From assembly GCA_029263055.1 (NCBI GenBank), contig JAJCYG010000036.1, forward strand, positions 6,708 to 70,707: a stretch of DNA of 64,000 nucleotides, read 5' to 3'. Shown one piece after another: positions 1 through 29,905 of this stretch. The stretch's first letter is position 1, and each line of letters opens with the position of its first letter. Source of the stretch: Actinomycetes bacterium (lineage in GTDB: Bacteria; Auribacterota; JAJCYG01). The position numbers and the translations under genes were made by a program. Below the pieces are notes generated by a model, which saw only the letters and a program-made list of their open reading frames with translations, was not told where the DNA came from and did no database searches.

Positions 1-423
1 TTTTTCTTTTAATAGGTGTGCTGCTTGGCTATGATGAACATTCATCATTGTGCTGGCATGTTTAGGGATTTTAACATTCATTTCATTCATTAGGTAAAGA
101 AGGCCTAAATCGTGAATAATGAGAGCATCTGGCTTGAGTTCTTCTAAGTATAAAAGGTATTCTTTTAGAGAAGCAATTTCTAAAGACGTTAGAAGGCTGT
201 TAAGAGTGATATAGGCTTTGACATTATGTTGATGAGCATATTCAATGGCTTTAGCTAAATCTTCATCTTTAAAATTAAGCCAATCACCATGCTGTCTCAT
301 TGCATATCGTTTACTACTAAGATAAACCGCATCGGCTCCAGCCCGAATAACAGCTTCCAAAGCCTCTTGAGAACCTGCTGGGGCTAAAAGTTCAATTCTT
401 TTGTTTTTATTGATCTTATGCAT
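1..423 (-). CDS. Peptidase U32 family protein, N-terminal 141 aa only (gene continues beyond window start)
   Basis: Absent from the ORF track because there is no stop codon inside the window. The minus-strand frame from ATG 423..421 translates without stops to MHKINKNKRIELLAPAGSQEALEAVIRAGADAVYLSSKRYAMRQHGDW...NVKAYITLNSLL...DALIIHDLG. The LLAPAG, GADAVY and AYITxN blocks are typical of the U32 (PrtC/YdcP/UbiU-UbiV-like) family. The ATG overlaps the stop of the upstream MqnA/D-like gene (TAATG). Confidence 0.7.
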   Translation of the reverse strand, partial: MHKINKNKRIELLAPAGSQEALEAVIRAGADAVYLSSKRYAMRQHGDWLNFKDEDLAKAIEYAHQHNVKAYITLNSLLTSLEIASLKEYLLYLEELKPDALIIHDLGLLYLMNEMNVKIPKHASTMMNVHHSQAAHLLKEK

Positions 424-1282
424 ATTCAACATCTCTTTCTTTTTGAGAAAAGACAATGTCTTGTTGAGGAACGTAATCGATTAATTTTCTCTGATAAGCT
501 CGTAGATAAAGTGTTTTTAGACCTAGAAGTACATCCTCGGGCATAGATAAGGTGTCTTCATTGGCAAACATTTTGACAAAATCATTTCGAACAATGCTTT
601 TTGGACCTCGTCCAAAATGACTTGCGAATTTTAATGCTTTAACAGGATGTTTCAATGCATAAACCATGCTTGCTTGAACCATCTCTTGAATTTGTTTTAT
701 TTTTTCTTCACCTAAGTCTCTTCGAACAACATTGAGACCAACAGGAAGGGGAAGGTGGGTCTCTTGATACCACTTGTTCCCTAAGCAGCAAACTTTATCT
801 ATTGTGCGTTGCGTATAATTTAAAAGTTCTTCATGAATTAAAACTCCCGCATCGACTTCTTCTGATTCAATAGCATCAGCAATAGCATCAAAGGGAAGGT
901 TGACTACTTCAAAATCTTGGTAAAAGTATCTTAATAAAAAATAACCTGTTGTGCTGCAACCAGGAACGCCTACTTTCTTTCCTGCTAGAGAGGTGATTTT
1001 TTTCCCTTTTTTACAACCTAGTACAGGTCCGTATCCTCGACCGACACTGGCTCCTGAAGACAAAATCGCATAATCCTTATCTATCTTTGGATAAAAAATA
1101 GATGAAATCGCGCAGACATCAAATATGCCCATGAGCGCCATTTCATTTAAATCGCGGATATGACCCTGGTAAAACTTAAATGAGTATTCTTTCGAAAGGG
1201 CTATCTTGTTTTTTTCTAAAGCATAATAGTGAAAGGCATCATCGGGATCAGGTGTGTAACCTATTCTTAGAAGCGTTTTCAT
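416..1282 (-). CDS. MqnA/MqnD-family protein (futalosine-route menaquinone biosynthesis family, periplasmic-binding-protein-like fold)
   Basis: 288 aa. The N-terminal LRIGYTPDPDDAFHYYAL and the SSGASVGRGYGPV block resemble the xSPxxNDxFxFYAL and PSGASxGDGYGPV signatures of MqnA (chorismate dehydratase) and MqnD. It is coupled on both sides, sharing a start/stop nucleotide with each neighbour. Confidence 0.55.
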   Translation of the reverse strand: MKTLLRIGYTPDPDDAFHYYALEKNKIALSKEYSFKFYQGHIRDLNEMALMGIFDVCAISSIFYPKIDKDYAILSSGASVGRGYGPVLGCKKGKKITSLAGKKVGVPGCSTTGYFLLRYFYQDFEVVNLPFDAIADAIESEEVDAGVLIHEELLNYTQRTIDKVCCLGNKWYQETHLPLPVGLNVVRRDLGEEKIKQIQEMVQASMVYALKHPVKALKFASHFGRGPKSIVRNDFVKMFANEDTLSMPEDVLLGLKTLYLRAYQRKLIDYVPQQDIVFSQKERDVEYA

Positions 1283-2364
1283 TAATAAATTCCTCCCTCA
1301 ACTTTAAGTGTTAAATTATTTAAAGGCTGTGGATCTGCAATCCCATCCCATAAGCAACCTAATGCGATTGATTCTTCATTTATGGCATTTCGAATGCCTG
1401 TATCTCGTTCTAAAACATTTGGAAGAAAAACACTTTCATCTAATCGGTGAAATAAAACCTGGCCACGTTGATTGGGTTCAATAGGAGTCTTCAATCTTTC
1501 ATTTAAAGGAATGGATTTATCTAAGGAAATTAATTCAATTTGTAGTCGTTCTGAATGTGAATAATAGATGATTTGAGACGGCTCTTCTTTTAAGTCTTTT
1601 AAGCCGTGACAAACGCCAAAGAGACTGTTTCCGTAACCTGGAATAAGCACGGCATTAGGAAAGGAGTTCTTTATTTTTTTTATGGCCTCTTTTGAAATGG
1701 ACATGCCTCCAATATAAATACCTTTAATTTTTTCTCGGATGGTCTTATTTAATAGACTACTAATTGATTCTAAGACAATTGGAGTTGTAAATAAGTTCTC
1801 TATAAGTTGAGTGTTTAAAATCCTTATGGCTTGGCTTGTTACGTGATTCATGTATCGGTTTCGGGCAATAGACTTTGGGGCAAGCTTTCGATACCAGCGT
1901 GGGTCAAAGTCGATTGAAAAGGGGTCTGCACCACTTAATTTTTGTGCAATAGCATGTGAAGCTTTACCAATAACATGTGGCCCTCCGGGACCGATCCAGA
2001 GCCATCTTCCTTTGCCCGAAAACCCAAGATGTTGGGCTACTTGAGTAAAGGGATGAACGAAAATCTCTTCAAATTCATCTTTAAAGTAAGCGGTTGTTTT
2101 TGGAGTTCCTATTGTGCCACCTGTTTCGCAGAAAATTAGAGGCCGTTTTTCTTTTAAAAACTTTATAGGAATAAATTCTTCTATGGGTCTATTTGTTAAA
2201 TCGTCTAATTCCATTGACCCAAGTTTATATAGATCTTTTTTTTGTTGAATTTGATCGCGAACAGAAAAACCAAGTTTTTTCTCTTTTTTAAGCCAATAAG
2301 CACTCCCATGATTAGGATCAAAATGTAAATTGATAATAGTTTGAAGTCTAGAGAGAGATGTCAT
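1282..2364 (-). CDS. Small adenylate-forming enzyme (PaaK / coenzyme F390 synthetase / LuxE acyl-protein-synthetase-like)
   Basis: 360 aa. FCETGGTIGTPK matches the (S/T)SGTTGxPK phosphate-binding loop of small ANL-type adenylating enzymes. There are no TM segments. It overlaps the upstream MMPL gene by 17 nt. Confidence 0.5.
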   Translation of the reverse strand: MTSLSRLQTIINLHFDPNHGSAYWLKKEKKLGFSVRDQIQQKKDLYKLGSMELDDLTNRPIEEFIPIKFLKEKRPLIFCETGGTIGTPKTTAYFKDEFEEIFVHPFTQVAQHLGFSGKGRWLWIGPGGPHVIGKASHAIAQKLSGADPFSIDFDPRWYRKLAPKSIARNRYMNHVTSQAIRILNTQLIENLFTTPIVLESISSLLNKTIREKIKGIYIGGMSISKEAIKKIKNSFPNAVLIPGYGNSLFGVCHGLKDLKEEPSQIIYYSHSERLQIELISLDKSIPLNERLKTPIEPNQRGQVLFHRLDESVFLPNVLERDTGIRNAINEESIALGCLWDGIADPQPLNNLTLKVEGGIY

Positions 2365-4558
2365 TGTTTGGCTCCATTTTTGGTAAGAATTGAACTAAAG
2401 CGGGTAACATAAAAAGATCACATAAATAAGCGCTAAAAATAGCAATCATAGAGAGAATGCTGAATTGAATAATTGGAATAAAGTTGGATATTAAAAGAGA
2501 TGAAAACCCTAGACAAACAACAATAGATGTTAATCCAATAGCAGGGCCAATTTCTTTGACTGCTTCAGCCATGTTCTTTTTATTTTTATAGGTATAGAGA
2601 AGAAAAATGGTGTCATCCACAATAACGCCAATAAGAACAGCAGCGACAAAGACATTGATGTTGTTTATAGAGATGTTTAGTAAGGACATGATTCCGGCTG
2701 TAATGATAATGGGAAAAATGTTAGCGATCATAGAGATGAAGGCAATTTTAATTGATTTAAAAAGGATTAAAAAGCAGAGCGAAATAAGAAGAATTAAGAG
2801 AATAAACGTTTTGACCTGATTAGCTAAAAGTTGGGTTTGAGATTCAAGGATCAGAGGAATAATGCCTGTTATAGAGATTCTTACGTTTTCAGTTGAGATA
2901 TCTCTCCAAATGGTCTCAATGTTTTTCTTTATTTCAGGAAACCGTTTATCAGAGAAGTTTTTGAATCTTAGAGTCATTCTTGATGTCTCTTCTGACTCTG
3001 TTAAGAATATTGTTTTTGCTTGAGGAGAGCGTTGTTCGATTTTTCTCAAGGCTTTAATGAGTAAAGGATGGTTGTTATGGTTTTTATTAAGGCCTCCTCG
3101 ATGCATTTTTTTGAGTGCCTCATCCAGTGGATCAAAGATAGAGTTAATCTTAGTTAGTTCAGGGATTGTTTGCAGTCTTTGTTCAAAGGAGTATATTTTA
3201 TTTAATGAGTCTTTATTTGTTAAAGGTTGTTTGTCTAAAGATTGGAGAAGCAATTGAACCGTCAAAGTGCCTGTTAAGTTTTTTTCGGTTGATTGATAGG
3301 ACTTAATCAAAGGAGAATCTTGTTTAAAAAAGAATAATGCATCAGAATTAATTTTAAGTTTATTTAATTGAAAACCTAAGAAAAGTGTTATTAAACAAAA
3401 AAGAACAAGAATTAAGAGTGCTACTGGCTTTGACTGTTTTTGAAATCCCTTAATTTTAAATGTGAACGCTTGGATTGAGTGAAAATTTCCGTTGAGTAGA
3501 TGGTATAGGCTTGGAATAAAGAAATAGGCTGAGACAAAAGCTAAAAAAATTCCTATAGGAGCAATCCATCCAATGAGTGAAATAGCTTGCTGAGGAGAGA
3601 ATAAAAAAGCGGTTGTTCCCAGAGCAGTGGTAAAGGAAGCCATTAAACCTGGTGTAAAGGTCTCTTTATAAGCTTTTTTAAATGGGTGTGAAGCATGTTT
3701 ATTTAAGGCTATTTTATAAAAAAGGTGTATGGATAGGGTTGTCACAATACAGAACAAAAGAGGAAAAATTATTAACGAAGCTAAGGTAATAGAGACTTTA
3801 AATAGAGGGAATAAACAGAGTGTTGTTAAAACACTAAAGAGAGTTCCCATAGAGACGCAAAAGGCTATTTTAAAGCTTTTGAAGTAGAACATAAGTATTA
3901 GAAAAGAGAGAATGAGAAGCAATGGCAATATTTTAGTCAGGTCTTTTTTTAGAGAAGTCGCTAAAAATTTTGAAAAATAAATGGGCCCAGTTGTGTCAAA
4001 AGAGATATTGAGTTGTTTAAAGCGAAAGTTTAGGTCTTCATAAATGGTTTGATTTTTATTTTTTGAAGACGATTGAGCAAAAACAATAAGTGCTGATGTT
4101 TGTTTGTCCTTGGAGAGTACTAATTGGGACCATCCCTGGTGTTGGGATAGAGTTTGGATAAAGGTGTTTAGCTTAGAAAGGTGAATCGAAGGATTGGTAT
4201 AAAGTTCATTATAATTAAGGTTGTTTTCTTCTAAAAAGAGACTAATAGGATCAATAAAGTCTTCTACATTGGGATCTTTGGTCAATAGTTCTAAGAATTC
4301 AACATAATCTTTTAATAAAGAGTCATTGAGAATAGCTTGAGTATTAAAAGAAAATTGAAGGTATTCATCGTTTTTAAAGTGATGTGTGAGTTTTTGATAG
4401 CTTTGGTATAGAGGATCTTCTTTGTTTATCCAATCGTGAATATTGTTCTCTAGATGTGCTTTTGGTAATAAGAATAAAGTCCCTGTCATTAAGAGAAGAA
4501 CAATACCTGTTATAAATGGAGAGCGCTTTAAAATAAAGTCAGGAAGTCTCTTCTTCAT
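2348..4558 (-). CDS. MMPL/RND-superfamily exporter (two 6-TM bundles separated by large extracytoplasmic loops)
   Basis: 736 aa. There is an N-terminal TM helix, a roughly 190-aa soluble loop, a cluster of about 5 TM helices, a second roughly 200-aa loop and a C-terminal cluster of about 5 TM helices. This is the topology of MMPL / predicted RND-superfamily lipid exporters. The start overlaps the stop of the reductase gene by 1 nt. Confidence 0.6.
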   Translation of the reverse strand: MKKRLPDFILKRSPFITGIVLLLMTGTLFLLPKAHLENNIHDWINKEDPLYQSYQKLTHHFKNDEYLQFSFNTQAILNDSLLKDYVEFLELLTKDPNVEDFIDPISLFLEENNLNYNELYTNPSIHLSKLNTFIQTLSQHQGWSQLVLSKDKQTSALIVFAQSSSKNKNQTIYEDLNFRFKQLNISFDTTGPIYFSKFLATSLKKDLTKILPLLLILSFLILMFYFKSFKIAFCVSMGTLFSVLTTLCLFPLFKVSITLASLIIFPLLFCIVTTLSIHLFYKIALNKHASHPFKKAYKETFTPGLMASFTTALGTTAFLFSPQQAISLIGWIAPIGIFLAFVSAYFFIPSLYHLLNGNFHSIQAFTFKIKGFQKQSKPVALLILVLFCLITLFLGFQLNKLKINSDALFFFKQDSPLIKSYQSTEKNLTGTLTVQLLLQSLDKQPLTNKDSLNKIYSFEQRLQTIPELTKINSIFDPLDEALKKMHRGGLNKNHNNHPLLIKALRKIEQRSPQAKTIFLTESEETSRMTLRFKNFSDKRFPEIKKNIETIWRDISTENVRISITGIIPLILESQTQLLANQVKTFILLILLISLCFLILFKSIKIAFISMIANIFPIIITAGIMSLLNISINNINVFVAAVLIGVIVDDTIFLLYTYKNKKNMAEAVKEIGPAIGLTSIVVCLGFSSLLISNFIPIIQFSILSMIAIFSAYLCDLFMLPALVQFLPKMEPNNDISL

Positions 4559-6138
4559 TATTCCTCTACGAGCTCCTCTATGAGTCGATCGTCTAGTTGC
4601 TTGAAGTATTCACTAAAGATAAACCCCAGTTTTAAGCCTTGTGACTGGTCTCCTAAAATTTTGAGTTTTCCTTGAAAAAAGGCTTCTCTAGGATTGAGTT
4701 TGCCATGGACCATTTCTTGAAAAACTGATTCTTCAATCTCATATCCAAAATCAAAAGAAGTTTCATTTTTTATTTCTAATTTTTTAAGGTGCCCTAAATT
4801 AAATTCCAAAAGTTCTTCAGTTGTGGAATCTCCTTTAATTCGAAAGAGGACCTTTGATTGAATAAAGTCAGCTCTCTTAAGTAGGCTCGTACCAAAATCT
4901 TGATTGGCAAAGTGGTGTAAGTATTTTTTAGAGTCATTAATATTGAGAGAGTCTAGAGCTGATGAGTGAAGTGAGAAACGTTTTTTGTTTTGTTTAAAAA
5001 AGTTAAGTTCATTTAAATAACTAAGTGCAATTGTATCGAGATTTGTCTTTTGTTCAAAAGGTCTAAGTATTGATTGTTCTTGATTCAGAAGCGTTAATGA
5101 AGGAGAAGAAAAAAGGTATGCTTCGTAAGCTTTTGTTGCGCGTTTAAATCTTTGCTCAAGAGGAGATCTTATTTTATTAGCGAGCTCTTCTTTAGATGTT
5201 AGGGCCACTCCGGAGAGGTTAAGAACTCGACAAAAAGCATCTCGAATAGCACTGAGTTTAAACTCTTTAGAAGCAATAACTGAAATGGTTTTTGATTTTA
5301 TCTCTTTTTGTTCTATTTGATTTAAAACAACATGGGCTAACGTTTGAATAGGAATCAAATTGAGAGAAATGGCTGGGTTCATCACAACCCTTAGAGGGAT
5401 ATGTACTTTATTGTCTGTTAGTTGGATCTCGTATTGGGAGTGAAGTTTTTGAGTTTTTTTTAAGTCGTGTAAACAGCATCGTTTAATAAAGTGGAGGGCT
5501 TTTAAAAAGGTATATAGGGTGGTTGCTGATTGGGTTTCTCCGATTACTGTTCCACCGATAACAATGCTAGGACGGTAGATAATTATGGGTTCAGTTGCCT
5601 TTTTTGTTTTTTCTTTTAAGAAGAGTTCTGCCTTAAATTTAGATTTTTCATATGCATTTTTAAAAGATTGTCCTATGTCGAGATCTTTTGAAGTAAAAGG
5701 CCCCGAATGGTTTCCCGCGACAAAGGCAGTGCTGATATGATGAAACGCTTTGCTTTTTAAATATTGATGGAGTTCATAAGCGTGACAAACACTCAAAAAA
5801 TTATTTTGGTGGAGCTCATTGGCGTAAATATCGTCAAAACAGGTCATGCCTGCAGAGTGAATAAAGTGATCAATATTATTTTTGAGATAATCTAGATGAT
5901 TCTGCTTGAGTCCAAATCGAGGAAGGGAGATGTCCCCCTCATACACAAATAGTTGCTCTTTTATTTGACTCGATGTGAGCTGTGTAAAAGGCTGCAGCAG
6001 CTGATGTAGACGTTCTTTTAATTTGCCTTCTTTTTTTCGGACGAGAGTGTGAACTCGATATCCTTTATTAAGAAGGCCTGCTAAAAGATGTTTGCCGATA
6101 TAGCCTGTAGCCCCAGTTAAAAATATGTTTTTTACCAT
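4558..6138 (-). CDS. NAD(P)-dependent thioester/fatty-acyl reductase (NAD_binding_4 type) fused to a C-terminal SCP2 lipid-carrier domain
   Basis: The N-terminal IFLTGATGYIGKHLL Rossmann motif and YRPSIVIGG are as in male-sterility/thioester-reductase domains. The C-terminal HGKLNPREAFFQGKLKILGDQSQGLKLGFIF matches the SCP2 sterol-carrier signature. 526 aa. Confidence 0.6.
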   Translation of the reverse strand: MVKNIFLTGATGYIGKHLLAGLLNKGYRVHTLVRKKEGKLKERLHQLLQPFTQLTSSQIKEQLFVYEGDISLPRFGLKQNHLDYLKNNIDHFIHSAGMTCFDDIYANELHQNNFLSVCHAYELHQYLKSKAFHHISTAFVAGNHSGPFTSKDLDIGQSFKNAYEKSKFKAELFLKEKTKKATEPIIIYRPSIVIGGTVIGETQSATTLYTFLKALHFIKRCCLHDLKKTQKLHSQYEIQLTDNKVHIPLRVVMNPAISLNLIPIQTLAHVVLNQIEQKEIKSKTISVIASKEFKLSAIRDAFCRVLNLSGVALTSKEELANKIRSPLEQRFKRATKAYEAYLFSSPSLTLLNQEQSILRPFEQKTNLDTIALSYLNELNFFKQNKKRFSLHSSALDSLNINDSKKYLHHFANQDFGTSLLKRADFIQSKVLFRIKGDSTTEELLEFNLGHLKKLEIKNETSFDFGYEIEESVFQEMVHGKLNPREAFFQGKLKILGDQSQGLKLGFIFSEYFKQLDDRLIEELVEE

Positions 6139-6257
6139 GAATGAAAGAACCTATTATTTATGTTTTGGTTATGTTAAAGGATGGACTTAAATCTTAGATT
6201 AAAAGAGGATTAACTTTTTTTAATAATAGAGGCTGTTGTTATTTTTTTTCTTGTTCT

Positions 6258-6542
6258 TTACCAGGTGTTTTGGCAGGAATTACAAAACCATTCAGGGTAG
6301 CAGTCGTGAATAATGCACCCTCCGAGTCTAACTTTTCCTTTTTCAGCTTTTTTGAGTAGCTCGGGTCCAGGAAAACCATACACAATAGGGATGGTGTTTT
6401 TGTTTGAGTGGCACTGTCTGCAAAAGTCTCCTGGATCTTCTAAAGTTGCGTTATGAGGTTGTTTGCCATCACTCCATGACGGAGTGGGTGTCACAAGGAA
6501 CAAAATCAAAAAGAGTGGATAGAGTTTGATGAGTTGTTTCAT
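6258..6542 (-). CDS. Small secreted Cys-rich protein with a CXXCH motif (possible mono-haem c-type cytochrome or zinc-ribbon protein)
   Basis: 94 aa. Signal peptide MKQLIKLYPLFLILFLVTPTPSWS. Six Cys residues, including CRQCH (a haem c-binding-type motif) and CNSC. It is the last gene of the co-directional minus-strand gene string that begins with the two-component system. Confidence 0.45.
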   Translation of the reverse strand: MKQLIKLYPLFLILFLVTPTPSWSDGKQPHNATLEDPGDFCRQCHSNKNTIPIVYGFPGPELLKKAEKGKVRLGGCIIHDCYPEWFCNSCQNTW

Positions 6543-6585
6543 TTTACCTCAATTAATTTGACGTAAAAAAGAAGTCGATATTCCT

Positions 6586-7506
6586 CTATTTTATTCTATT
6601 AATGACAGCGTTATAGAGGAGACGTCCCTTATAGTCGATAAATTCCGCTCGCATCTGATCTTTGTTTATTGTTAGACCTAAAAATCCACAGATTCCTTGA
6701 GAAAATAAAGCCTCATCTTTGCCTGTTTCTCTTGTTTTGCAGCCTGTCCCTGAAACAAGATAATCAATCGTGCCATGTGGATTGAGGTGTTGGAGGTTGT
6801 GCTCATGGCCACAGAGGTATGCTTGAACAGAATATTTTTCTAATATCGGTTTTACATGTTTGATTAACTCTTCTGATTTTTTATATCTTGGACCTGCAGA
6901 ATAAACTGGATGATGGCCAATAACAATGTTCCATTGAGCCTTTGATTCAGAAAGTGTTTTTTCAAGCCATTTAAGTTGTCGGCCAATCTCTTGATTCTTT
7001 AAATTCTGTTCAAATTTTTTAATGGTGTAATAAAAAAGGATAAAAGGGTTGGTATCTAAAAAGATAAACCGCACTGAGTTTTGAGCATCTATTTGTTTAT
7101 CAATAAAGTAATAACGAGCCGGTAGATTCCATCGATTGCTTATCTTTGAGTAGTCAATTTGAGCTTGGAGATTGCCTGAATAATCATGGTTGCCTAATGA
7201 AGCATACCAAGGAACCATTAAAGATGGGGCAGTATAGACATCTTCAAAAGCATTGTCCCATTTGGGATCTTCAGTACTTTTAACTCCATCTGTATAAAAG
7301 TTATCACCTGTTGTGAGAATGAAATTAGACTGATATTTTTTTGCATAACGGCCCATTTGTTTAGCCACAGATCGTTGGAGGTAAGAGCCTCTTTTTCCCC
7401 AATCACCTAAGGCGATAAAATTAAGATTAGGCTCAGAAATTTGTGGCTGATAGGGTGCTTCAAAACTTAAATATTTTTCAGTAAATAAAACAAATAGACA
7501 TGACAA
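6586..7506 (-). CDS. Purple acid phosphatase-type calcineurin-like metallophosphoesterase
   Basis: GDWG, GDNFY, GNHDY and GHEH metal-ligand motifs occur in the canonical PAP order. There is an N-terminal hydrophobic signal/anchor. Confidence 0.8.
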   Translation of the reverse strand: MSCLFVLFTEKYLSFEAPYQPQISEPNLNFIALGDWGKRGSYLQRSVAKQMGRYAKKYQSNFILTTGDNFYTDGVKSTEDPKWDNAFEDVYTAPSLMVPWYASLGNHDYSGNLQAQIDYSKISNRWNLPARYYFIDKQIDAQNSVRFIFLDTNPFILFYYTIKKFEQNLKNQEIGRQLKWLEKTLSESKAQWNIVIGHHPVYSAGPRYKKSEELIKHVKPILEKYSVQAYLCGHEHNLQHLNPHGTIDYLVSGTGCKTRETGKDEALFSQGICGFLGLTINKDQMRAEFIDYKGRLLYNAVINRIK

Positions 7507-7562
7507 AATAACGAGGCAACATGTGGCAATAATAAAGAATGGCTTTGGCCTATGAGACTTTT

Positions 7563-8132
7563 TCAGTGGAGAGTGTCCTTAAGTTCATTTATTGAAACAA
7601 AAGCAGAAATCATTAATAAAACAGAACCTATGGCTTCGGTTGCCTCTTCTAAATAGTCCTCTATAGGATCAATGATGCTTCTATCTATTGAAACGCTAGA
7701 GTGTAAGGCGCCATGATCTAGAGAGTACCCTAACACCCATAGAAAAAAGGTGGTAGACCAAAGAAGTAAGAGTGTGGGTTGTTGTTTAAGAGCAGCGATG
7801 ATCAATGAGCGCTTTGGATAAGCCCAGAAAATCGCAATTAATATTAAAGTGTAATAGGGGACACTAGAAAAAGGATCCCAATTAAATTCAACGCCATGCC
7901 AGTCCCTAACAGATAAAGCCACTAAAATAGTTCCAAACCAGATAGAAAAAAGGTGTTTGTTTATCCTGTAGTTTAAAAAGCAAAAGAGTGTGCCAATAAC
8001 AAGAGAAGCAAGAGAAAGTATTTCCCAAAAATTTTTATCAAGTCCTAATTGATCTGAAGGAAAATAGAGGGCAAAAAGAATAAGGGTTATAGAAAAAAAA
8101 CCAAGTATGCTTTTAAAGAGAGCCTTCTTCAT
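7563..8132 (-). CDS. Integral membrane protein, unknown function (5-6 TM)
   Basis: 189 aa, strongly hydrophobic with multiple predicted TM helices. It lies 13 nt downstream of the ArnT-like gene on the same strand. Confidence 0.5.
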   Translation of the reverse strand: MKKALFKSILGFFSITLILFALYFPSDQLGLDKNFWEILSLASLVIGTLFCFLNYRINKHLFSIWFGTILVALSVRDWHGVEFNWDPFSSVPYYTLILIAIFWAYPKRSLIIAALKQQPTLLLLWSTTFFLWVLGYSLDHGALHSSVSIDRSIIDPIEDYLEEATEAIGSVLLMISAFVSINELKDTLH

Positions 8133-8145
8133 GTCTTAATCACCT

Positions 8146-9579
8146 TCAGTTATTGATAGCAGTGACAACATGGTACGTGTCGCTTCCAATTTTCTGAGTC
8201 ATTCGAATTGTGATCTCTTCTTTAAAAGTATCTTCCATTTTAGGCTTTTGAATTAAAGCCACATTATTTGGATTTGACTTTAAAAATTGGATGAGTCTAT
8301 TGCTATCGTCTATCTTTTTTATAACATGGTCTCCTCCTAAATAATAGAGAAAAGATTCTTTGAAAAATTGATAGCTCGCACATTCTCCATTATTCTGTAC
8401 CAAGGGCTTGATTTGATTGCAAAGGGATCGAGCTGATTTGTATTTGTCTAAAACCGGATAAAAAACGAGCAGTACAAGAGTATAAATCGATGTAGCCACT
8501 ATTAGAATGACATAAAAAGCGCGCTTTATTTTAGCTTTAGAGACTAGTTGTGAAAAGTATTGGCTTAAGAAGAGTGCAAAAGCAGGAAATAGCGGAAGAA
8601 GGTAAAGACTCCGTTTTGAGTCTGAAAGAGTAAAGAAAATAAAAACAAGGCTAAACCAGACAATGAGAAATTTATGAGAAGGCGTTAACTTTTCTTTTGC
8701 TCGGCGTAATTGAATAATGGCTAAAGGAAGAAAAAAGATCCAAGGCATTGCATCGACGGGGAAGTTAATAAAATAATAGTAAAAGGGACGTATGTGCCCT
8801 GATGGGGCTATATAGCGAAAAAAATTGTGAACAATAAAATGTTGATAAAGGTATTCAGAACCTGCTTGCTCGTAGGCAAGCCAAACCCAAACCCCTATTG
8901 TAGAGACAAGGATTAAGAGTCCTAACGGAATCCACATCTTTAATAAAAAACTGAGCTGACGTTGCCACAGAAGAAAGAAAAAGATGATGCCGCATGGAAT
9001 AAGAATGCCAATAGGGCCCTTTGTTAAAAACCCCCCCGCCAAGGTTAGGTAAAAGACAAACCATAGACACGCTTCTTTATCATCAGAATATTTTGGCTTT
9101 GAGGTATACACAGTCCAAAAGAGAGCTAAAGATGAAAGAATAAAAAAAGCGAGAAGCATATCGAGCTGACCCCATGATGCTTGCCACCAGAAGCGATAGG
9201 TGGTGGCTAAAATCAGCATGGCGATCAATCCGGTTTTTAAATCAAACATCTCTTTGCCTAAGTGAATAAGAATTAAGAGCGCCAAAACAGCTGCTATGGC
9301 TGAAGGAATGCGTGCTGTAAAAGCATTAGTTTCCCCTTTAAAAAAAAGTTTGGATGCTGCAACCGTGACCCAAACATAAGCAGGAGGTTTGTCAGTATAG
9401 ATTTCTCCGTTTAAGTGAGGAACCGTGTAGTTTTCTGTCTGTATCATTTCCCGGGCAACTTGGGCAAACCGCGGTTCGTCTGGATTCCAAAGGTCGCGAG
9501 TACTAATCCCTACGAGAAGGACAAAGCTAAAAAAGACCAAAAAGAGGCTGGCCCAACGTTTAGTGATTGTTATATCCAT
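8146..9579 (-). CDS. ArnT/PMT-family (GT39/GT83) polyprenyl-phosphate-sugar-dependent glycosyltransferase, probably modifying lipid A or core
   Basis: The N-terminal DEPRFAQVAREM...PHLNGEIYTDKPPAYVWV is the signature of 4-amino-4-deoxy-L-arabinose transferase / protein-O-mannosyltransferase-family enzymes. At least 10 TM helices. 477 aa. Confidence 0.75.
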   Translation of the reverse strand: MDITITKRWASLFLVFFSFVLLVGISTRDLWNPDEPRFAQVAREMIQTENYTVPHLNGEIYTDKPPAYVWVTVAASKLFFKGETNAFTARIPSAIAAVLALLILIHLGKEMFDLKTGLIAMLILATTYRFWWQASWGQLDMLLAFFILSSLALFWTVYTSKPKYSDDKEACLWFVFYLTLAGGFLTKGPIGILIPCGIIFFFLLWQRQLSFLLKMWIPLGLLILVSTIGVWVWLAYEQAGSEYLYQHFIVHNFFRYIAPSGHIRPFYYYFINFPVDAMPWIFFLPLAIIQLRRAKEKLTPSHKFLIVWFSLVFIFFTLSDSKRSLYLLPLFPAFALFLSQYFSQLVSKAKIKRAFYVILIVATSIYTLVLLVFYPVLDKYKSARSLCNQIKPLVQNNGECASYQFFKESFLYYLGGDHVIKKIDDSNRLIQFLKSNPNNVALIQKPKMEDTFKEEITIRMTQKIGSDTYHVVTAINN

Positions 9580-9664: not shown

Positions 9665-11107
9665 TTATTCATCTTTGGCTGGAAAGGTTAGGTTAAAGAC
9701 GGTTCCTTTGCCTTCTGTGCTCTCTACAGAAATTGTTCCGTTATGAGAGAGCACAATGGATTGAACTAACGAAAGCCCTAGGCCATAGCCTTTGCTGTTT
9801 CTCGATTTGTCTGTCCGGTAGAAGCGATTAAAAAGGTGTGGGAGATCTGTTGTAGAGATTCCTTTGCCATTGTCTTTGATTGTCACAGAGATCGTGCCAT
9901 TATTTCGTTTAGCTTCAACTTCAATGAGGTCTGCCTTAGCATGCTTGGCAGCATTAGATGTGAGGTTATAAAGAGCCTGGTTTAGAAGTCTATAATTACC
10001 TTGGATAGTTAATGGGATTTGTCTGTCTGTTTTTGTTTCTACTTTTGTGGATTGGTTTTCTGCCTCTAAAAGTATCTGAGTCTGTTCTTGAACTTCTTCA
10101 ATTAATTGAGTGAGATTAAATGTTTCTGTCTCCTGAGGTTTGTTTTTTCTGGCATCAAGCTTAGCAAGCAGGAGTAGGTTTTTAATAATTGCGATGAGGT
10201 GGTTGACTTCGTTTAGACTTTCTGTGAGAAGTAATTGGTATTCACTCGACGTTCTTTCTCGGGTTAGTGCCACCTCTATAGATCCTTTTAAGGCTGTTAA
10301 TGGTGTATTTAGTTCATGTGACGCAGCAGCGCTAAACTGTTTTTCTCGTTCAAAGGAGGTCTCTAGTCTAAATAGCATTTGTTTTAAGGACTCAGTTAGT
10401 TTTTGAATTTCAATAGGCCCTTTTTGAGGGAGGTCAATTGATTGAAAATTCTCTGCTTCTTTAATTTTTTCTGCTTCTTGTACGATTTTGTCTAGAGGCT
10501 TTAGTCCTTGTTTAGAAATAAAGTAAATAATGATAGAGGACAAAATTGAAATAATAGGTATCCAGACCAGTAAAGTGGCTAAAAATCGTTTTGTGGCCCA
10601 ATAAACATTTTTTAATGATTTTGCAATGATGATGTGATAAATCTGTCCCTCTTTGTCTCGGTAAAGATAATGGAGTTGTATAAGAGGTGTCTCTTTATTG
10701 ATGGCATCTGCTTTAAATGAAGTCGTATTGACTTTTAAGCCAGTATTAAAAATAGGCATCCTCTTGTTTCGTGCATTGGGAGATCTGAAAAGTTTTGTGT
10801 GGCCTTGCCTTTGAATCCAAACCAGTTCATTGATTCCTTCAAGATCTTCTTCTAGGTCGACTTCTTCTTCGGTATGACCTAGTTCTTTAGCTAGCTTAAA
10901 CTCATCATTGTCTTCATCAATAATTCGAGTGAGTAGTTTGACTTGATTGGTTAGGTTCTTTTTTACTTCTAAGTCTGTTACTTTTTTATAAGAATAAAAA
11001 AGAACAGCAACAGTCGTAATCATGGCACCGACAAGAATCAATGAGTTGAATAAGGTTAAACGTGTTTTAAAAGAGCTAAACAGATTCAGTTTTTTCTTTA
11101 AGGACAT
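9665..11107 (-). CDS. Two-component sensor histidine kinase (PmrB/BasS-like genomic position)
   Basis: H-box SHELNTPLTAL. HATPase_c block GYGLGLSLVQSIVLSHNGTISVESTEGKGTVFNLTFP. Two TM helices flank a periplasmic domain. I chose the start at the internal MSLKKK (ATG 11107), which leaves a 28-nt gap after the regulator gene. The track ORF extends to 11212. Confidence 0.8.
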   Translation of the reverse strand: MSLKKKLNLFSSFKTRLTLFNSLILVGAMITTVAVLFYSYKKVTDLEVKKNLTNQVKLLTRIIDEDNDEFKLAKELGHTEEEVDLEEDLEGINELVWIQRQGHTKLFRSPNARNKRMPIFNTGLKVNTTSFKADAINKETPLIQLHYLYRDKEGQIYHIIIAKSLKNVYWATKRFLATLLVWIPIISILSSIIIYFISKQGLKPLDKIVQEAEKIKEAENFQSIDLPQKGPIEIQKLTESLKQMLFRLETSFEREKQFSAAASHELNTPLTALKGSIEVALTRERTSSEYQLLLTESLNEVNHLIAIIKNLLLLAKLDARKNKPQETETFNLTQLIEEVQEQTQILLEAENQSTKVETKTDRQIPLTIQGNYRLLNQALYNLTSNAAKHAKADLIEVEAKRNNGTISVTIKDNGKGISTTDLPHLFNRFYRTDKSRNSKGYGLGLSLVQSIVLSHNGTISVESTEGKGTVFNLTFPAKDE

Positions 11108-11759
11108 AGCCTCTACCTCTAAGTGTGTGAATAAATTTGTTTGGACTCTCTTGACTGATTTTATTGCGTAACCGATTAATGTAGACATCAATAATATTAG
11201 TCTCTGTATCAAAGTTTAATCCCCAAACATTTTCAGCAATCATGGTTCGAGTGAGAACTATGTTGGGATTGCGCATGAAATATTCTAAAAGAGTGTATTC
11301 TTTTGTTGTTAGTTCTATAAGCTTTTCATTACATTTTGCTTGGTGTTTCACAGTATCGAGTTCTATATTTTGGATTTGAATAAGGTGGGATGTTATTGAT
11401 GTTCCTCTGCGTAATAGGGCGCGAATACGTGCCAAAAGCTCGGCAAAGGAAAAGGGCTTGGTTAAGTAATCGTCTGCCCCTGCATTAAGACCTTTGATCT
11501 TGTCTTCAACTACATCCTTAGCTGTGAGCATTAGGATTGGAGTTGAAATATTGTTTCCTCGAATCTCTTGGCAGACTTGAAAGCCATCTTTAATAGGCAA
11601 AAGGATATCTAGGAGAATGAGGTCATATGGAGCGTTAATCGCGTAATCAATCCCATCTTGGCCGTTATTAACTACATCAACGATATAGCTCTCCTCTTCA
11701 AGTCCTTTTTTGATGAAACTAGAGACTTTGGGCTGATCTTCTATCACAAGAATTTTCAT
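11076..11759 (-). CDS. OmpR/PhoB-family response regulator (PmrA/BasR-like genomic position)
   Basis: MKILVIEDQPKV...DLILLDILLP...LMLTAKD...GADDYLTKPF is a receiver domain. The C-terminus is winged-helix (LTTKEYTLLEYFMRNPN...RLRNKI). I chose the start at MKILVIED (ATG 11759) by family convention. The track ORF starts at 11792. Confidence 0.85.
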   Translation of the reverse strand: MKILVIEDQPKVSSFIKKGLEEESYIVDVVNNGQDGIDYAINAPYDLILLDILLPIKDGFQVCQEIRGNNISTPILMLTAKDVVEDKIKGLNAGADDYLTKPFSFAELLARIRALLRRGTSITSHLIQIQNIELDTVKHQAKCNEKLIELTTKEYTLLEYFMRNPNIVLTRTMIAENVWGLNFDTETNIIDVYINRLRNKISQESPNKFIHTLRGRGYVLKEKTESV

Positions 11760-11796
11760 AGCGTGGTAGTTTAGCATACAATAGGGACTCATCCTT

Positions 11797-12087: not shown

Positions 12088-13899
12088 ATGAAAAACCAGT
12101 CAAACACTGTCGACCGTCGTAAGTTTAATCGAACAGAAATAGCTCCTAAAGAGAGTTATTCTTTTCAGGCTTATTCTCTTAAACGAAACATGCCAGAACA
12201 GTTAATGGGTGAATTACTCGATTTTTCTCTTCAAGGTGCTGGCATAAAACTCCTTTCAGTTCAAAACCCTTTAAATAAAGGGGATTTTCTTTATGGAATC
12301 CAATTTGGCCGTCCTGATGGCGAAGAGGTTTCCAAAGCTGTGGGTGTGATTCGCTCAACCGACACTGTACTTGATGACAGTGGCCAACCTTTTTGGAGAG
12401 TTGGCGTCGAGCTTATCAATATCCCTGGCGAGCAAAAGAATGCTGTCTCCAATTCAGAATTTCCAGTTCGTCCTCAACGTTATGAAATTGACGCTGAATG
12501 CGAAGAGCTCACCGAAGTTGCTTTTCAAATAGATAACGAATCTCTTTTCGGAAAACTACACAATGTTTCTAAATTTGGTTTAGCGGTTAAGATTGGCCGA
12601 GAAGCGCCACTAAAATTAAACGTAGGTCGTTATTTAGAGGGTGTTGAAGTTAAAGTTGATGGCGAAATGGTTTTTACAGGGTTTTTAGTGATCCGTAATT
12701 TGCGCCAAACTCAAGACTTTACTCTGATCGGTTGTGAAGTAACAGGAAGTTTAATTGATGTGGATCAAATTTTAGAAAATCAGAAAATAGTTCATTACAA
12801 ATCAAGAGCCAAAGAAAAATGTCTTTCCTTAAGTGAAATCCAACGTATTCCAAATGATTTTAAGGCTCTCGTCGCTGATTTTCGTTATTGCTTAGATAAA
12901 TTTCATAACGAACTAGAGCGTCCCTACGCCAATGATTCTAAAGATAAAGTGGTCCGAGAAGTTTATCCTTTATTTAAATCTCTTGTAGATGAAGTTTATT
13001 CAAAGTTCCGTCGTTGCGTTGAAAATATTTCAGCAGAAGAACATGAATCGTACAAAAACTATTTTCAAAAACAATTGCACCCTCTTTTATTAACCGCCCC
13101 TTTTATTAAACACACCTATCAAAAGCCACTTGGTTATGCGGGTGACTATGACATGGTGCTTAAGGTGTTAGACAAAGAGATCGAAGGGTCGACCTTTCTT
13201 TCAAAACTGCTCAACATGTATTGTTGGAATATGAACGCGGCTGAAGCCCATCGAAATCGAATCACTTATTTAGTTGATTTGCTTCAAGAGGTTGTCAGTA
13301 CTAAAGAACATCGCGAGATCTTAGTGATTGGATCTGGGCCTGCTCGGGAAATTAAACTCTTTTTAAATAAGGCTCCAGCAGATGTTGATTGTACGTTTAC
13401 GCTGCTTGATTTTGATTCAAGAGCGCTCACTCATAGCCAAGAAGAATTGCTTTCTGAGGTGTTGAAAAATCGCTCAAACGTAAAAATCAAATTTATGAAC
13501 AAAAGTGTGCGCCAAATCATTAAGTCCAAGAGCTGTGATACTAATACTGGTAAGTATGATCTGGTTTACTGCGCGGGGCTATTTGATTATCTTTCAGATC
13601 CATTCTGCGTTAAGATGCTGGAAATAATGGGATTACATCTAAAACCTACAGGGCGTATGATTGCCACAAACGTGACAGAGCTCAATTATTACCGATACTT
13701 CATGGAATTCATGGGAGAGTGGTATTTGACACACCGGTCTCTCGATGCTATGTTGAACTTAGCGACTGGTTTACAGAAAAAACATGGGATGTTCGCAGAC
13801 TGTGAAGTGGATGCCACAGGGGTTAATGTATTCTTAAATGTTCAAAAAAGCAAAGAAAACACAGGCACAGCAGACTCCAGCCTTACAAAGTGCTTATAA
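12088..13899 (+). CDS. PilZ-like domain(s) fused to a class I SAM-dependent methyltransferase
   Basis: N-terminal RRKFNRTEI ... LLDFSLQGAGIK (RxxxR plus DxSxxG = PilZ c-di-GMP-binding signature). A second, degenerate copy follows (VRPQRYEI ... LHNVSKFGLAV). The C-terminal half has EILVIGSGPAREI (motif I) and LVYCAGLFDYLSDP, typical of SAM methyltransferases. Confidence 0.55.
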   Translation: MKNQSNTVDRRKFNRTEIAPKESYSFQAYSLKRNMPEQLMGELLDFSLQGAGIKLLSVQNPLNKGDFLYGIQFGRPDGEEVSKAVGVIRSTDTVLDDSGQPFWRVGVELINIPGEQKNAVSNSEFPVRPQRYEIDAECEELTEVAFQIDNESLFGKLHNVSKFGLAVKIGREAPLKLNVGRYLEGVEVKVDGEMVFTGFLVIRNLRQTQDFTLIGCEVTGSLIDVDQILENQKIVHYKSRAKEKCLSLSEIQRIPNDFKALVADFRYCLDKFHNELERPYANDSKDKVVREVYPLFKSLVDEVYSKFRRCVENISAEEHESYKNYFQKQLHPLLLTAPFIKHTYQKPLGYAGDYDMVLKVLDKEIEGSTFLSKLLNMYCWNMNAAEAHRNRITYLVDLLQEVVSTKEHREILVIGSGPAREIKLFLNKAPADVDCTFTLLDFDSRALTHSQEELLSEVLKNRSNVKIKFMNKSVRQIIKSKSCDTNTGKYDLVYCAGLFDYLSDPFCVKMLEIMGLHLKPTGRMIATNVTELNYYRYFMEFMGEWYLTHRSLDAMLNLATGLQKKHGMFADCEVDATGVNVFLNVQKSKENTGTADSSLTKCL

Positions 13900-28416: not shown

Positions 28417-29877
28417 ATGAGTAAAGAACAAACAAAAACATTAGACGATTTAGTCAATCGCGAGTATAAGTACGGTTTTAAAACTGATATTGAAACGGGC
28501 AAGCAGATTAAAGGTTTGTCTGAAGAGACAGTGCGCGCGATTTCTGCGTATAAAAATGAGCCGGAGTGGTTGTTGGAATACCGATTAGATGCGTACCACA
28601 AATGGCTTAAAATGAAAGAACCTAAGTGGTCGAGTGTTCACTATCCTGAGATTAACTATAAAGATTTGATTTACTATTCAGAGCCAAAACAAAAAACAGA
28701 CGCTGAAAAGCCTAAAAGTTTAGATGAAATCGATCCAGAACTTCGCCGCACATTTGAAAAATTAGGGATTTCTACTGCAGAGCAAAAGCGTTTGAGTGGT
28801 GTGGCTGTGGATGCGGTGTTTGATTCTGTTTCTGTGGGAACCTCTTTTAAAGAAAAACTCGAAAAGATAGGGATTATTTTCTGTGCTTTTTCTGAGGCCG
28901 TTCAAACTCATCCTGAATTGGTTCGAAAGTATATGAGTTCAGTGGTCCCGTCCAACGACAATTTTTATGCGGCTCTCAACTCTGCTGTTTTTACTGATGG
29001 TTCGTTTTGCTTCATTCCAAAAAATACAAAGTGCCCAATGGAGTTGTCGACTTACTTTCGAATTAACACAGAAGGTACGGGGCAGTTTGAACGGACTTTG
29101 ATTGTTTGCGAAGAAAATAGCACGGTCAGTTATTTGGAAGGGTGTACAGCCCCTCGATTTGACACCAACCAATTGCATGCTGCGGTGGTTGAATTAGTTG
29201 CTCTAGAAAATGCAGAGATTCGTTACTCCACAGTTCAAAACTGGTATGCCGGAGATCCTAAAACAGGCAAGGGTGGGATCTACAACTTTGTGACCAAACG
29301 TGGGGAGTGTCGCGGAAACAATTCTAAAATTTCATGGACCCAAGTTGAAACAGGTTCAGCCATTACTTGGAAATATCCTAGCTGTATTTTAATGGGAGAC
29401 AACTCCGTCGGTGAATTTTACTCGGTGGCATTAACCACAGGATATCAACAAGCCGATACAGGAACCAAAATGATTCATTTGGGTAGCAACACCAAGAGCA
29501 CGATTATTGCCAAGGGGATTGCAGCTGGTAAAGCTGAGAACAACTACCGTGGTTTGGTGCAAGTGGGCAAGAAAGCAAAGAATGTGCGTAATTTTACACA
29601 ATGTGATTCTTTATTAATTGGTCCGGCATGTGGAGCGCATACCTACCCGCATATTGATGTGCAAAATCCAACCGCTCAATTAGAACATGAAGCCTCGGTT
29701 TCGCGGGTGAGTGATGAGCAGTTGTTTTACTTTTTATCTCGTGGGATTAATGCAGAAGATGCCATGGGGATTATTATCCGTGGTTTTTGTAAAGATGTGT
29801 TCAAGCATTTGCCGTTTGAGTTTGCTGTAGAGGCGAACCAATTGTTAGGCCTTAAACTTGAAGGAACAGTTGGTTAA
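28417..29877 (+). CDS. sufB: Fe-S cluster assembly scaffold SufB
   Basis: 486 aa. [26 protein letters not shown] and the C-terminal [25 protein letters not shown] are characteristic of SufB. Confidence 0.9.
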
Positions 29878-29905
29878 CGCCAAAGACTTTGTAAAGGAGA
29901 GAAAG

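Follow-up and report, generated by a model that had tools for sequence, protein, structure and literature searches.

We analysed a 64,000-nucleotide stretch of DNA (hereafter the window) from a genome labelled Actinomycetes bacterium and placed by GTDB in the Auribacterota (assembly GCA_029263055.1, contig JAJCYG010000036.1, positions 6,708 to 70,707 of the forward strand). Its first 6,138 nt hold five overlapping minus-strand genes, which encode a terminal reductase fused to an SCP2 domain (TR::SCP2), an MMPL exporter, an adenylating enzyme of the ANL superfamily, an MqnD-type protein and, cut by the window edge, a U32-family protein. We found that this block is a fragment of a larger gene cluster, present in at least 80 bacterial species from at least six phyla. 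The cluster is predicted to convert an acid to an aldehyde, and usually on to an amine, and to export the product, and this description is much more secure than any naming of the acid. Most likely, the cluster branches off the futalosine (mqn) route to naphthoquinones. We tentatively propose, with somewhat more doubt than confidence, that 1,4-dihydroxy-6-naphthoate or a lipophilic derivative would be adenylated, reduced to an aldehyde, usually transaminated, ring-hydroxylated without O2 by the U32 protein, and exported. The enzyme families are known; the combination and the implied futalosine branch are new. An initial annotation, made from the DNA alone, recognised no described pathway in the five genes, and we likewise found no description of the cluster in the full-text literature searched, outside which most subscription journals lie.

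A five-gene operon within a wider conserved cluster

The five genes form one tightly coupled operon (Table 1), as the initial annotation had it. The open reading frames lie exactly where they were placed, and neighbouring genes overlap by 1, 17, 1 and 8 nt, as read from the sequence. The TR/MMPL and ANL/MqnD junctions are both TAATG, with 1 nt shared, the MMPL and ANL genes share 17 nt, and the MqnD and U32 genes share 8 nt at ATGCATAA. Purine-rich stretches resembling Shine-Dalgarno sequences lie 5' of the MMPL, ANL and MqnD starts, and the junctions are too tight for an extra gene, such as one for a carrier protein, among the five. Consensus scans revealed no convincing sigma-70 site on the minus strand of the 119-nt spacer and no credible terminator inside the operon, promoter-like sites in positions 1-8200 were fewer than in shuffles, and Rfam and tRNA scans of the window gave no match.

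Table 1. Features of the operon and of its surroundings in the 64-kb window.
Feature	Position	Strand	Length	Remarks
TR::SCP2	4558..6138	-	526 aa	operon gene 1
MMPL/HAE3-type RND inner-membrane exporter	2348..4558	-	736 aa	
EhpF-type adenylating enzyme (ANL superfamily)	1282..2364	-	360 aa	
MqnD-type protein	416..1282	-	288 aa	
U32-family Fe-S protein	1..423	-	N-terminal 141 aa	open frame cut by window edge
AT-rich non-coding stretch	6139..6257	-	119 nt	presumed promoter region, 5' of TR::SCP2
Predicted secreted cysteine-rich protein	6258-6542	-	94 aa	CxxCH haem-binding motif CRQCH; directly upstream of operon
ArnT/PMT_2-type GT-C glycosyltransferase	8146-9579	-		2 kb upstream of operon
OmpR-type response regulator and HAMP histidine kinase	9665-11792	-		upstream of operon
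PilZ domain fused to methyltransferase	12088-13899	+		
SUF iron-sulfur assembly operon	28417-33264	+		SufB, SufC, SufD, SufS-like class-V aminotransferase
PEP-CTERM-anchored protein	34377-35339	-		LDL-receptor class B repeats
Ergothioneine genes egtB, egtD	45094-47291	+		egtB 576 vs 360-bit cutoff; egtD 417 vs 291

Using an alignment of the adenylating enzyme, we retrieved 80 species-level loci and mapped reference proteins onto them by tblastn. Genes were counted within 10 kb of the adenylating enzyme, and many of the missing cases are contigs that break off. The terminal reductase is present in 64 of the 80 loci, a class-III aminotransferase in 61, the MMPL protein in 59, a small alpha/beta-hydrolase in 48, a U32 protein with two modules in 44, an MqnD-type protein in 28, and a secreted protein or lipoprotein without a Pfam family (p515/p368) in 24. 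Anammox bacteria of the Brocadiales contribute 34 loci, other Planctomycetota 17, metagenome-assembled genomes (MAGs) of Gamma/Betaproteobacteria 15, Desulfobacterota seven, Hydrogenedentales-like bacteria three, Omnitrophota two and Magnetococcales one, with one more on a short contig of doubtful label. The arrangement is far beyond chance, as 80 species-level genomes keep these genes in synteny, and the neighbourhood comparison contradicts the idea, raised with the initial annotation, that the block might be conserved in no other genome. Two loci bear implausible taxon labels, an 'uncultured Klebsiella' MAG (L050) and a 2.4-kb 'Maribacter' contig (L081), probably through errors of binning or labelling.

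The homologs closest to the window proteins belong to an Omnitrophota MAG (57-66% identity), and the closest relatives of the window (L095 and L096) have the gene order TR::SCP2 - ANL - MqnD - aminotransferase - p520 - hydrolase. The aminotransferase of the cluster is a generic class-III enzyme close to ArgD, GABA-AT and phospholyases, and the hydrolase resembles uncharacterised COG2945-type proteins. The lipoprotein p515 (copies at 5042-6604 of L096, 6828-8375 of L002 and 13249-14802 of L004) has an invariant lipobox cysteine and many other invariant residues, and no sequence match in Pfam, NCBIfam or the PDB. Its AlphaFold model (predicted local distance difference test score, pLDDT, 81.7) comprises a helical domain and a beta-sandwich like that of NLP cytolysins, with the invariant stretches CGC and HAGHPRQR resembling a functional site. 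In 22-23 anammox loci (for example L016, L034, L044 and L061), genes for a split cytochrome b (PF00033 and PF00032), with a b6-like N-terminal and a subunit-IV-like C-terminal part, and for two multihaem c-type cytochromes sit between the aminotransferase and hydrolase genes; the anammox clusters showed no Rieske gene.

Two further neighbours recur less widely. In L007, L011, L013, L087 and 14 other loci, which include most of the gammaproteobacterial ones and those of the Hydrogenedentales, the aminotransferase or U32 gene is followed by a gene for a secreted DUF547 protein with a CxxxxC-like motif. In a single MAG (L004, 1465-8481), the cluster is preceded by phosphonate genes (phosphoenolpyruvate mutase, phosphonopyruvate decarboxylase-like protein and aminotransferase) along with LPG_synthase_TM and CDP-alcohol phosphatidyltransferase genes, which together resemble a phosphonolipid module.

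Protein families and the link to futalosine genes

The product of 416-1282, initially annotated as MqnA/MqnD-like, proved to be a strong member of VitK2_biosynth (PF02621, E = 3.4e-61) in Pfam rather than of an ABC substrate-binding family. Among PDB structures it matches AF1704 (E = 1e-53) and the MqnD protein TTHA1568 (E = 1e-38) and no MqnA, so that the MqnD part of the assignment stands and the MqnA part does not. An IHE motif with the conserved histidine lies at residues 149-151 (nt 830-838), and H150, E151, P11, D15, N46, G85-P86, T111-T112 and L177-P180 are invariant relative to both solved MqnD-type proteins. On these sequence features we assign the protein to the MqnD-type, 1,4-dihydroxy-6-naphthoate synthase family and not to the MqnA type; its predicted reaction is thereby the formation of the naphthoate from cyclic dehypoxanthine futalosine. 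In a neighbour-joining tree, built without support values, 31 of the 35 MqnD proteins from a cluster context, including that of the window, fall in one clade, which leaves out 79 of 80 ordinary MqnDs and the two solved proteins. The other four are MqnDs of the ordinary type, found next to the cluster together with mqnA and radical SAM genes. Judged by this tree, the clade of the window MqnD occurs almost only inside the cluster.

As a control, we searched metagenome contigs for MqnD genes, using an alignment to which the two solved proteins belonged. This gave 80 loci with ordinary MqnDs, 36-46% identical to the window protein, and none of the 80 has the adenylating enzyme, reductase, MMPL, hydrolase, p515 or U32 gene nearby. 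Four of them contain mqnC-mqnA-mqnE, and two of these four have UbiD-like genes, one with a UbiX-like gene as well; the UbiD- and UbiX-like genes correspond to the predicted MqnL/MqnM. Within the window, tblastn searches with MqnA, MqnC, MqnE, UbiA, UbiD, UbiX and UbiE found no match, and the 64 kb thus do not hold a standard mqn locus.

By contrast with the ordinary loci, the MqnD-type gene is embedded within the cluster in four lineages, and mqnA/mqnC/mqnE adjoin the cluster in 11 loci from three lineages, one PNP_UDP_1 gene among them. A gammaproteobacterial MAG (L087, equal to L013) has the order MqnD - TR::SCP2 - MMPL - ANL - aminotransferase - DUF547, which stands back to back with a set of mqnC, MqnA-type, mqnE and PNP_UDP_1 genes. 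This adjacent futalosine set is without an mqnD of its own, and the second PF02621 gene of the locus matches chorismate dehydratases. In the Hydrogenedentales, a single same-strand operon runs mqnA - mqnC - mqnD - x - TPR - p361 - DUF547 - TR - SCP2 - MMPL - ANL - hydrolase - TPR - P450. The gammaproteobacterial MAGs carry early mqn genes and the cluster as one package; a recent survey of quinone pathways reported the futalosine pathway from none of its Pseudomonadota genomes (PMC11707229). A Rieske ring hydroxylase beside the cluster in L087 was considered as a further component and dropped, because it is not conserved in any other locus.

The 360-residue adenylating enzyme aligns end to end with EhpF (PDB 3l2k/3hgu; phmmer E = 5e-28, query residues 7-349 against 24-354 of the 366-residue chain), which places the product of 1282-2364 among adenylating enzymes. 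It has no significant Pfam match, AMP-binding PF00501 included, and a weak NCBIfam match to acyl-CoA synthetases (E = 2e-4); some of its homologs do match PF00501. The P-loop GGTIGTPK lies at residues 82-89 (nt 2098-2121) and was identified against the phosphate-loop pattern (T/S)(S/G)G(S/T)(T/S)GxPK, and T81, G83, G86 and P88 are invariant in an alignment of 13 homologs. GYGN follows at residue 243 and HRLDES at residue 306, and the protein ends at residue 360 after a conserved G(I/L)Y, with homologs of 345-395 aa. We conclude from this sequence layout that the enzyme consists of the ANL N-terminal domain only, without the C-terminal subdomain that forms thioesters, and its predicted activity, by homology to EhpF, is adenylation of a carboxylic acid. 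The EhpF-type family is rare: an exhaustive HMMER search of 1.84 billion representatives yielded 427 clusters at E<=1e-3, of which 79 reach E<=1e-30. It includes natural fusions of SCP2::ANL (four proteins), hydrolase::ANL and aminotransferase::ANL, and the cluster parts therefore work together. Two further ANL fusions were seen (P0384 and P0383); in one the partner is a zinc alcohol dehydrogenase, and in the other, which may be an artefact of gene calling, it is an MMPL fragment.

Of the relatives of the adenylating enzyme, only EhpF is characterised. It acts in the D-alanylgriseoluteic acid (phenazine) pathway of Pantoea agglomerans, on an aromatic polycyclic acid, and EhpF/EhpG are related to ThnN/ThnO of thienamycin. 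Bera et al., writing in Acta Cryst D in 2010, reportedly proposed that EhpF and EhpG together turn phenazine-1,6-dicarboxylate into the 6-formyl compound by way of an adenylate. The ehpG gene adjoins ehpF and is annotated as an aldehyde dehydrogenase (PMC11278526). The two systems share full-length homologous adenylating enzymes without the C-terminal subdomain, encoded beside a reductase, and a proposed path from aromatic carboxylate through acyl-adenylate to aldehyde without a carrier protein. They differ in the partner, which here is a terminal reductase of the NAD_binding_4 family joined to SCP2, whereas EhpG is an aldehyde dehydrogenase; we rejected an ehp-type pair on this ground. Moreover, no phenazine genes are found here, the aminotransferase, U32, MqnD and MMPL are added, identity is below 30%, and the present cluster is kept across whole lineages, while ehp is a plasmid-borne antibiotic cluster. 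The present adenylating enzyme and reductase are a variant of EhpF/EhpG, not a member. Type I carboxylic acid reductases (adenylation, peptidyl carrier protein and reductase domains; A-PCP-R) working with an omega-transaminase, for example of the PigE type, achieve the same net conversion of acid to aldehyde to amine, with a reductase domain of the same family and a class-III aminotransferase. Here, however, adenylation and reduction are on separate proteins, the adenylating enzyme is without its C-terminal subdomain, no phosphopantetheinyl transferase is present, and none of the five proteins contains a carrier domain according to Pfam.

Pfam likewise confirmed the other family assignments of the initial annotation, Peptidase_U32, VitK2_biosynth, MMPL, NAD_binding_4 and SCP2, with the adenylating enzyme identified through the EhpF alignment. 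TR::SCP2 matches NAD_binding_4 (PF07993, E = 4.3e-41) over residues 7-215 (nt 5494-6120) and, at its C-terminus, SCP2 (E = 2.2e-7, 31.6 bits against a 21.3-bit cutoff) over residues 454-508 (nt 4615-4779). Its NCBIfam match to Thioester-redct TIGR01746 (E = 1.4e-33, 116.7 bits) stays under the 213-bit cutoff. GATGYIG at residues 9-15 fits the Rossmann pattern GxxGxxG, and YEKSK at residues 163-167 fits the catalytic YxxxK. Among PDB structures, TR::SCP2 comes closest to aldehyde-forming terminal reductase domains, those of MxaA, a polyketide synthase (PKS), M. tuberculosis Nrp and a carboxylic acid reductase, and residues 463-515 match SCP2 structures. The sequence points to an NAD(P)H-dependent terminal 'thioester' reductase domain joined to a lipid-binding SCP2 domain, and SCP2, either fused or as a separate 131-aa gene, occurs in at least 50 related loci.

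The exporter has two stretches that match MMPL (PF03176, E = 4.7e-22, 78.8 bits with a cutoff of 20.5) and matches, in NCBIfam, HAE3 (TIGR00921, E = 1.4e-47), with weaker HpnN and BstA matches, all under the equivalog cutoffs. It has two hydrophobic blocks and shares 31% identity, along the whole protein, with the MMPL of the L004 cluster. As with the HAE3 lipid exporters HpnN and BstA, the pump belongs to a lipid-type biosynthetic cluster, and secreted TPR, START and lipoprotein partners occur in cluster relatives. Unlike them, it scores far under the HpnN and BstA cutoffs, and the cluster lipoprotein, with its helical domain and NLP-like beta-sandwich, is unlike BstB or BstC.

The 141 visible residues of the U32 protein match Peptidase_U32 (E = 1.6e-12), and a full-length relative does so in two stretches (E = 1.3e-93). 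A Logan contig of 2,289 bp (L001), 100% identical to window positions 1-2086, reaches 203 nt past coordinate 1 and lengthens the gene to 211 aa; outside the window it shows a CX6CX15CX3C motif, C-ISQSAQ-C-FHSGIATEMSSNRGK-C-LKS-C. A cysteine motif of this type, defined as CX6CX15CX3/4C, binds [4Fe-4S] in UbiU (PMC6747719), and known U32 relatives hydroxylate aromatic rings with prephenate (PMC10990095). The window protein is 66% identical to the 677-aa cluster U32 of the Omnitrophota MAG. Full-length relatives of about 650-680 aa have two tandem modules with a cysteine cluster in each, and are just 25-32% identical to RlhA, UbiU and TrhP. We rejected orthology with RlhA, because identity is low (25-32%, with 32% on one domain) and the two modules both match its first domain. 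NCBIfam scores are far below cutoff for UbiU (72 for the window protein and 163 for the full-length relative, against 440) and for TrhP (68 and 190, against 534), and by these comparisons the protein falls outside the characterised subfamilies UbiU, UbiV, TrhP and RlhA. By analogy with these, it is predicted to carry out prephenate-dependent hydroxylation without O2.

The distribution of the U32 gene suggests a ring hydroxylation step. Lineages that have it are anaerobic or microaerophilic (anammox bacteria, Desulfobacterota, Sedimenticolaceae and Omnitrophota), whereas the mostly aerobic Gemmataceae-type loci are without it. In the Hydrogenedentales-type loci (L083, with a P450 at 12347-13867, L077 and L080), the operon ends in a P450, there is no U32, and SCP2 is a separate 131-aa gene. 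This pattern resembles the choice between O2-independent and O2-dependent hydroxylases in ubiquinone synthesis (PMC6747719, PMC10990095). The cluster also recalls UbiT-UbiU-UbiV, which likewise bring an SCP2 module together with two CX6CX15CX3C U32 Fe-S modules in a quinone-type pathway of anaerobes and microaerophiles, the prephenate-dependent ring hydroxylation being putative here. The differences are that the two U32 modules are fused in one protein of about 650-680 aa, just 28% identical to UbiU and far under the UbiU/UbiV cutoffs, that SCP2 is fused to the reductase and has marginal similarity to UbiT (E = 0.009), and that the setting is the futalosine and not the ubiquinone pathway.

Candidate chemistry and competing explanations

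In the route we propose, the MqnD-type enzyme would supply 1,4-dihydroxy-6-naphthoate, perhaps already with a lipophilic substituent held by SCP2, and the adenylating enzyme would turn the ring carboxylate into an acyl-adenylate. The terminal reductase would use NAD(P)H to form the aldehyde from the adenylate or from a transient CoA ester; these are its most likely substrates because no carrier protein is encoded and the adenylating enzyme is without a thioester-forming subdomain. In most relatives the aminotransferase would make a primary amine from the aldehyde, and here this enzyme is probably encoded just beyond coordinate 1. The two-module U32 may hydroxylate the aromatic ring in an O2-independent reaction, for which prephenate is the probable oxygen donor, as in UbiU/UbiV, and in the Hydrogenedentales a P450 would take its place. 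The MMPL pump would remove the amphiphilic product from the cytoplasmic membrane, and periplasmic partners (p515, TPR, START or DUF547 proteins) may receive it. Candidates for this product are an envelope lipid, a periplasmic redox cofactor and an electron shuttle.

This outline partly supports the initial annotation, which had an acid activated, reduced to an aldehyde or alcohol, possibly hydroxylated, and exported as a lipid. The five genes are just a fragment of the cluster, though, and an amine is the likelier end product because most relatives have the class-III aminotransferase. The suggested tie to menaquinone or futalosine chemistry is strengthened by mqnA/mqnC/mqnE beside the cluster in 11 loci and by the aromatic substrate of EhpF, while the 'modified menaquinone' listed among the products remains unproven, because no prenyltransferase is linked to the cluster at any locus. 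A more specific outcome, which we consider rather unlikely, is a new class of naphthoquinone derivatives, such as a 6-aminomethyl- or 6-formyl-naphthoquinol that is hydroxylated and perhaps lipid-anchored, made from 1,4-dihydroxy-6-naphthoate, exported to the periplasm or outer membrane and, in anammox bacteria, working with the cytochrome b and multihaem module inside the cluster.

Several observations weigh against the naphthoate route. Its chemical steps are all predicted from family membership, and the neighbour-joining tree behind the MqnD clade has no support values. The aminotransferase, hydrolase and lipoprotein genes are absent from the 64-kb window and, if the genome has them, would sit beyond coordinate 1. 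The initial annotation had seen no prenyltransferase in the block, and none was found by tblastn in the 64 kb or near about 90 loci; a UbiA or UbiX homolog lies near none of these loci, and a UbiD homolog near just two. Because no prenyltransferase is linked, the lipophilic part implied by SCP2 and MMPL is unexplained. No anammox or Desulfobacterota locus has an MqnD within 10 kb of the cluster, so a naphthoate link in these bacteria assumes mqn genes elsewhere in the genome. Nor do U32 and MqnD form an obligate pair, as they usually share one slot after the ANL gene and occur together in just two of the 80 loci and in the window. Finally, the reductase domain is about equally close to fatty acyl-CoA reductases and to other reductase domains.

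These points can be set against what is known of the futalosine pathway, that is MqnD with the predicted MqnP/MqnL/MqnM. The MqnD-type enzyme and the adjacent mqnA, mqnC and mqnE genes tie the cluster to it, and the taxa concerned use the futalosine route. In contrast to that pathway, the cluster has no linked prenyltransferase, methyltransferase or, the two UbiD homologs aside, decarboxylase, its MqnDs group apart from the ordinary ones in the unsupported tree, and carboxylate reduction, transamination, hydroxylation and export are foreign to the known sequence of steps. One alternative is that the substrate is aliphatic: a fatty or isoprenoid acid would be adenylated, reduced to a fatty aldehyde, transaminated to a long-chain amine (or reduced to an alcohol) and exported as an envelope lipid, with MqnD and U32 there for other reasons. 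This would suit a reductase that resembles fatty acyl-CoA reductases and PRK07201-type enzymes, the absence of a linked prenyltransferase, and the lipid indicated by SCP2, the MMPL/HAE3 pump, START and lipoprotein alike, as well as the SCP2 fused straight to the adenylating enzyme in four proteins and the one locus that adjoins phosphonate-lipid and CDP-alcohol transferase genes. It leaves unexplained, however, why a dedicated MqnD clade sits inside the cluster in four lineages and why mqnA/mqnC/mqnE adjoin it in 11 loci; moreover, characterised U32 proteins all act on aromatic rings, and the only characterised relative of the adenylating enzyme uses an aromatic acid. We judge an aliphatic substrate unlikely, though less so than the other alternatives. 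A diffusible secondary metabolite (such as an antibiotic, siderophore or soluble redox shuttle), built from a chorismate-derived aromatic acid by EhpF/EhpG-like logic with MMPL as an efflux pump, would agree with the rarity of the adenylating-enzyme family and with the antibiotic pathways to which its named relatives EhpF and ThnN belong. Aminated naphthoquinone carboxylates (ACNQ) are known extracellular shuttles, which also fits. Accessory antibiotic clusters are usually patchy, though, and the synteny here is stable across whole lineages (for instance every anammox genus sampled and many Gemmataceae); a membrane-bound product is favoured by the SCP2, START and lipoprotein partners, and no resistance, nonribosomal peptide synthetase/PKS or antibiotic-type regulatory genes were seen at the loci inspected. 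Of the alternatives, we find this one the hardest to credit.

The cluster might also serve ordinary menaquinone, either as an alternative to the late MqnP/MqnL/MqnM steps or in its maturation and trafficking. Direct demonstration of the late futalosine steps is indeed lacking (PMC3914697; PMC4746308), and the planctomycete MqnD gene sits in the cluster. Since five planctomycete proteomes hold five MqnD genes in total (PMC3914697), the cluster copy may be the only one in these bacteria. SCP2 with U32 resembles the UbiT/U/V quinone machinery, and the anammox version contains cytochrome b genes. Against this, what menaquinone synthesis needs after the naphthoate is prenylation, decarboxylation and methylation, not carboxylate reduction, transamination or hydroxylation, and ordinary mqnD loci with UbiD/UbiX-like genes have no cluster gene. 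An exporter and periplasmic partners are unexpected for a quinone of the cytoplasmic membrane, and the gammaproteobacterial MAGs hold the cluster and early mqn genes as a package, in a phylum where the survey saw no futalosine pathway (PMC11707229). Standard menaquinone as the product is therefore improbable in our estimate.

The proposed diversion of 1,4-dihydroxy-6-naphthoate would bear on a pathway that is treated as a linear route to menaquinone, with the steps past this intermediate never directly shown. If the proposal is correct, 1,4-dihydroxy-6-naphthoate has a second fate, comprising a dedicated MqnD clade, reduction, transamination, O2-independent hydroxylation and export. Should the more specific naphthoquinone outcome hold as well, anaerobes would have a second, envelope-located quinone-type cofactor, and the two-module U32 subfamily would gain its first assigned function outside RNA and ubiquinone. 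The hosts of the cluster, which include anammox bacteria, Gemmataceae, sulfur-cycling Gammaproteobacteria, Desulfobacterota and Omnitrophota, are ecologically important and mostly uncultured or hard to study. The proposal also offers a testable function for three poorly understood groups, namely EhpF-type enzymes without the C-terminal domain, fused two-module U32 proteins, and the lipoprotein with an NLP-like domain. Its predictions are directly testable because some cluster-bearing planctomycetes are culturable and genetically tractable.

Surroundings of the operon

Upstream of the operon, the 94-aa protein with the CRQCH motif has no Pfam or NCBIfam match and no homolog in the related loci. 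A PMT_2 glycosyltransferase like that upstream of the operon is also found near the cluster in nine Brocadia loci (L034, 1828-3324, and eight others), and its proximity could be a coincidence or could reflect a link to polyprenyl-phosphate chemistry. The OmpR-type regulator and HAMP kinase may regulate the operon. A similar regulator and kinase pair lies upstream of the cluster in the closest Omnitrophota relative (L002, 3421-5500), where it is followed by DsbD_TM and thioredoxin-like genes.

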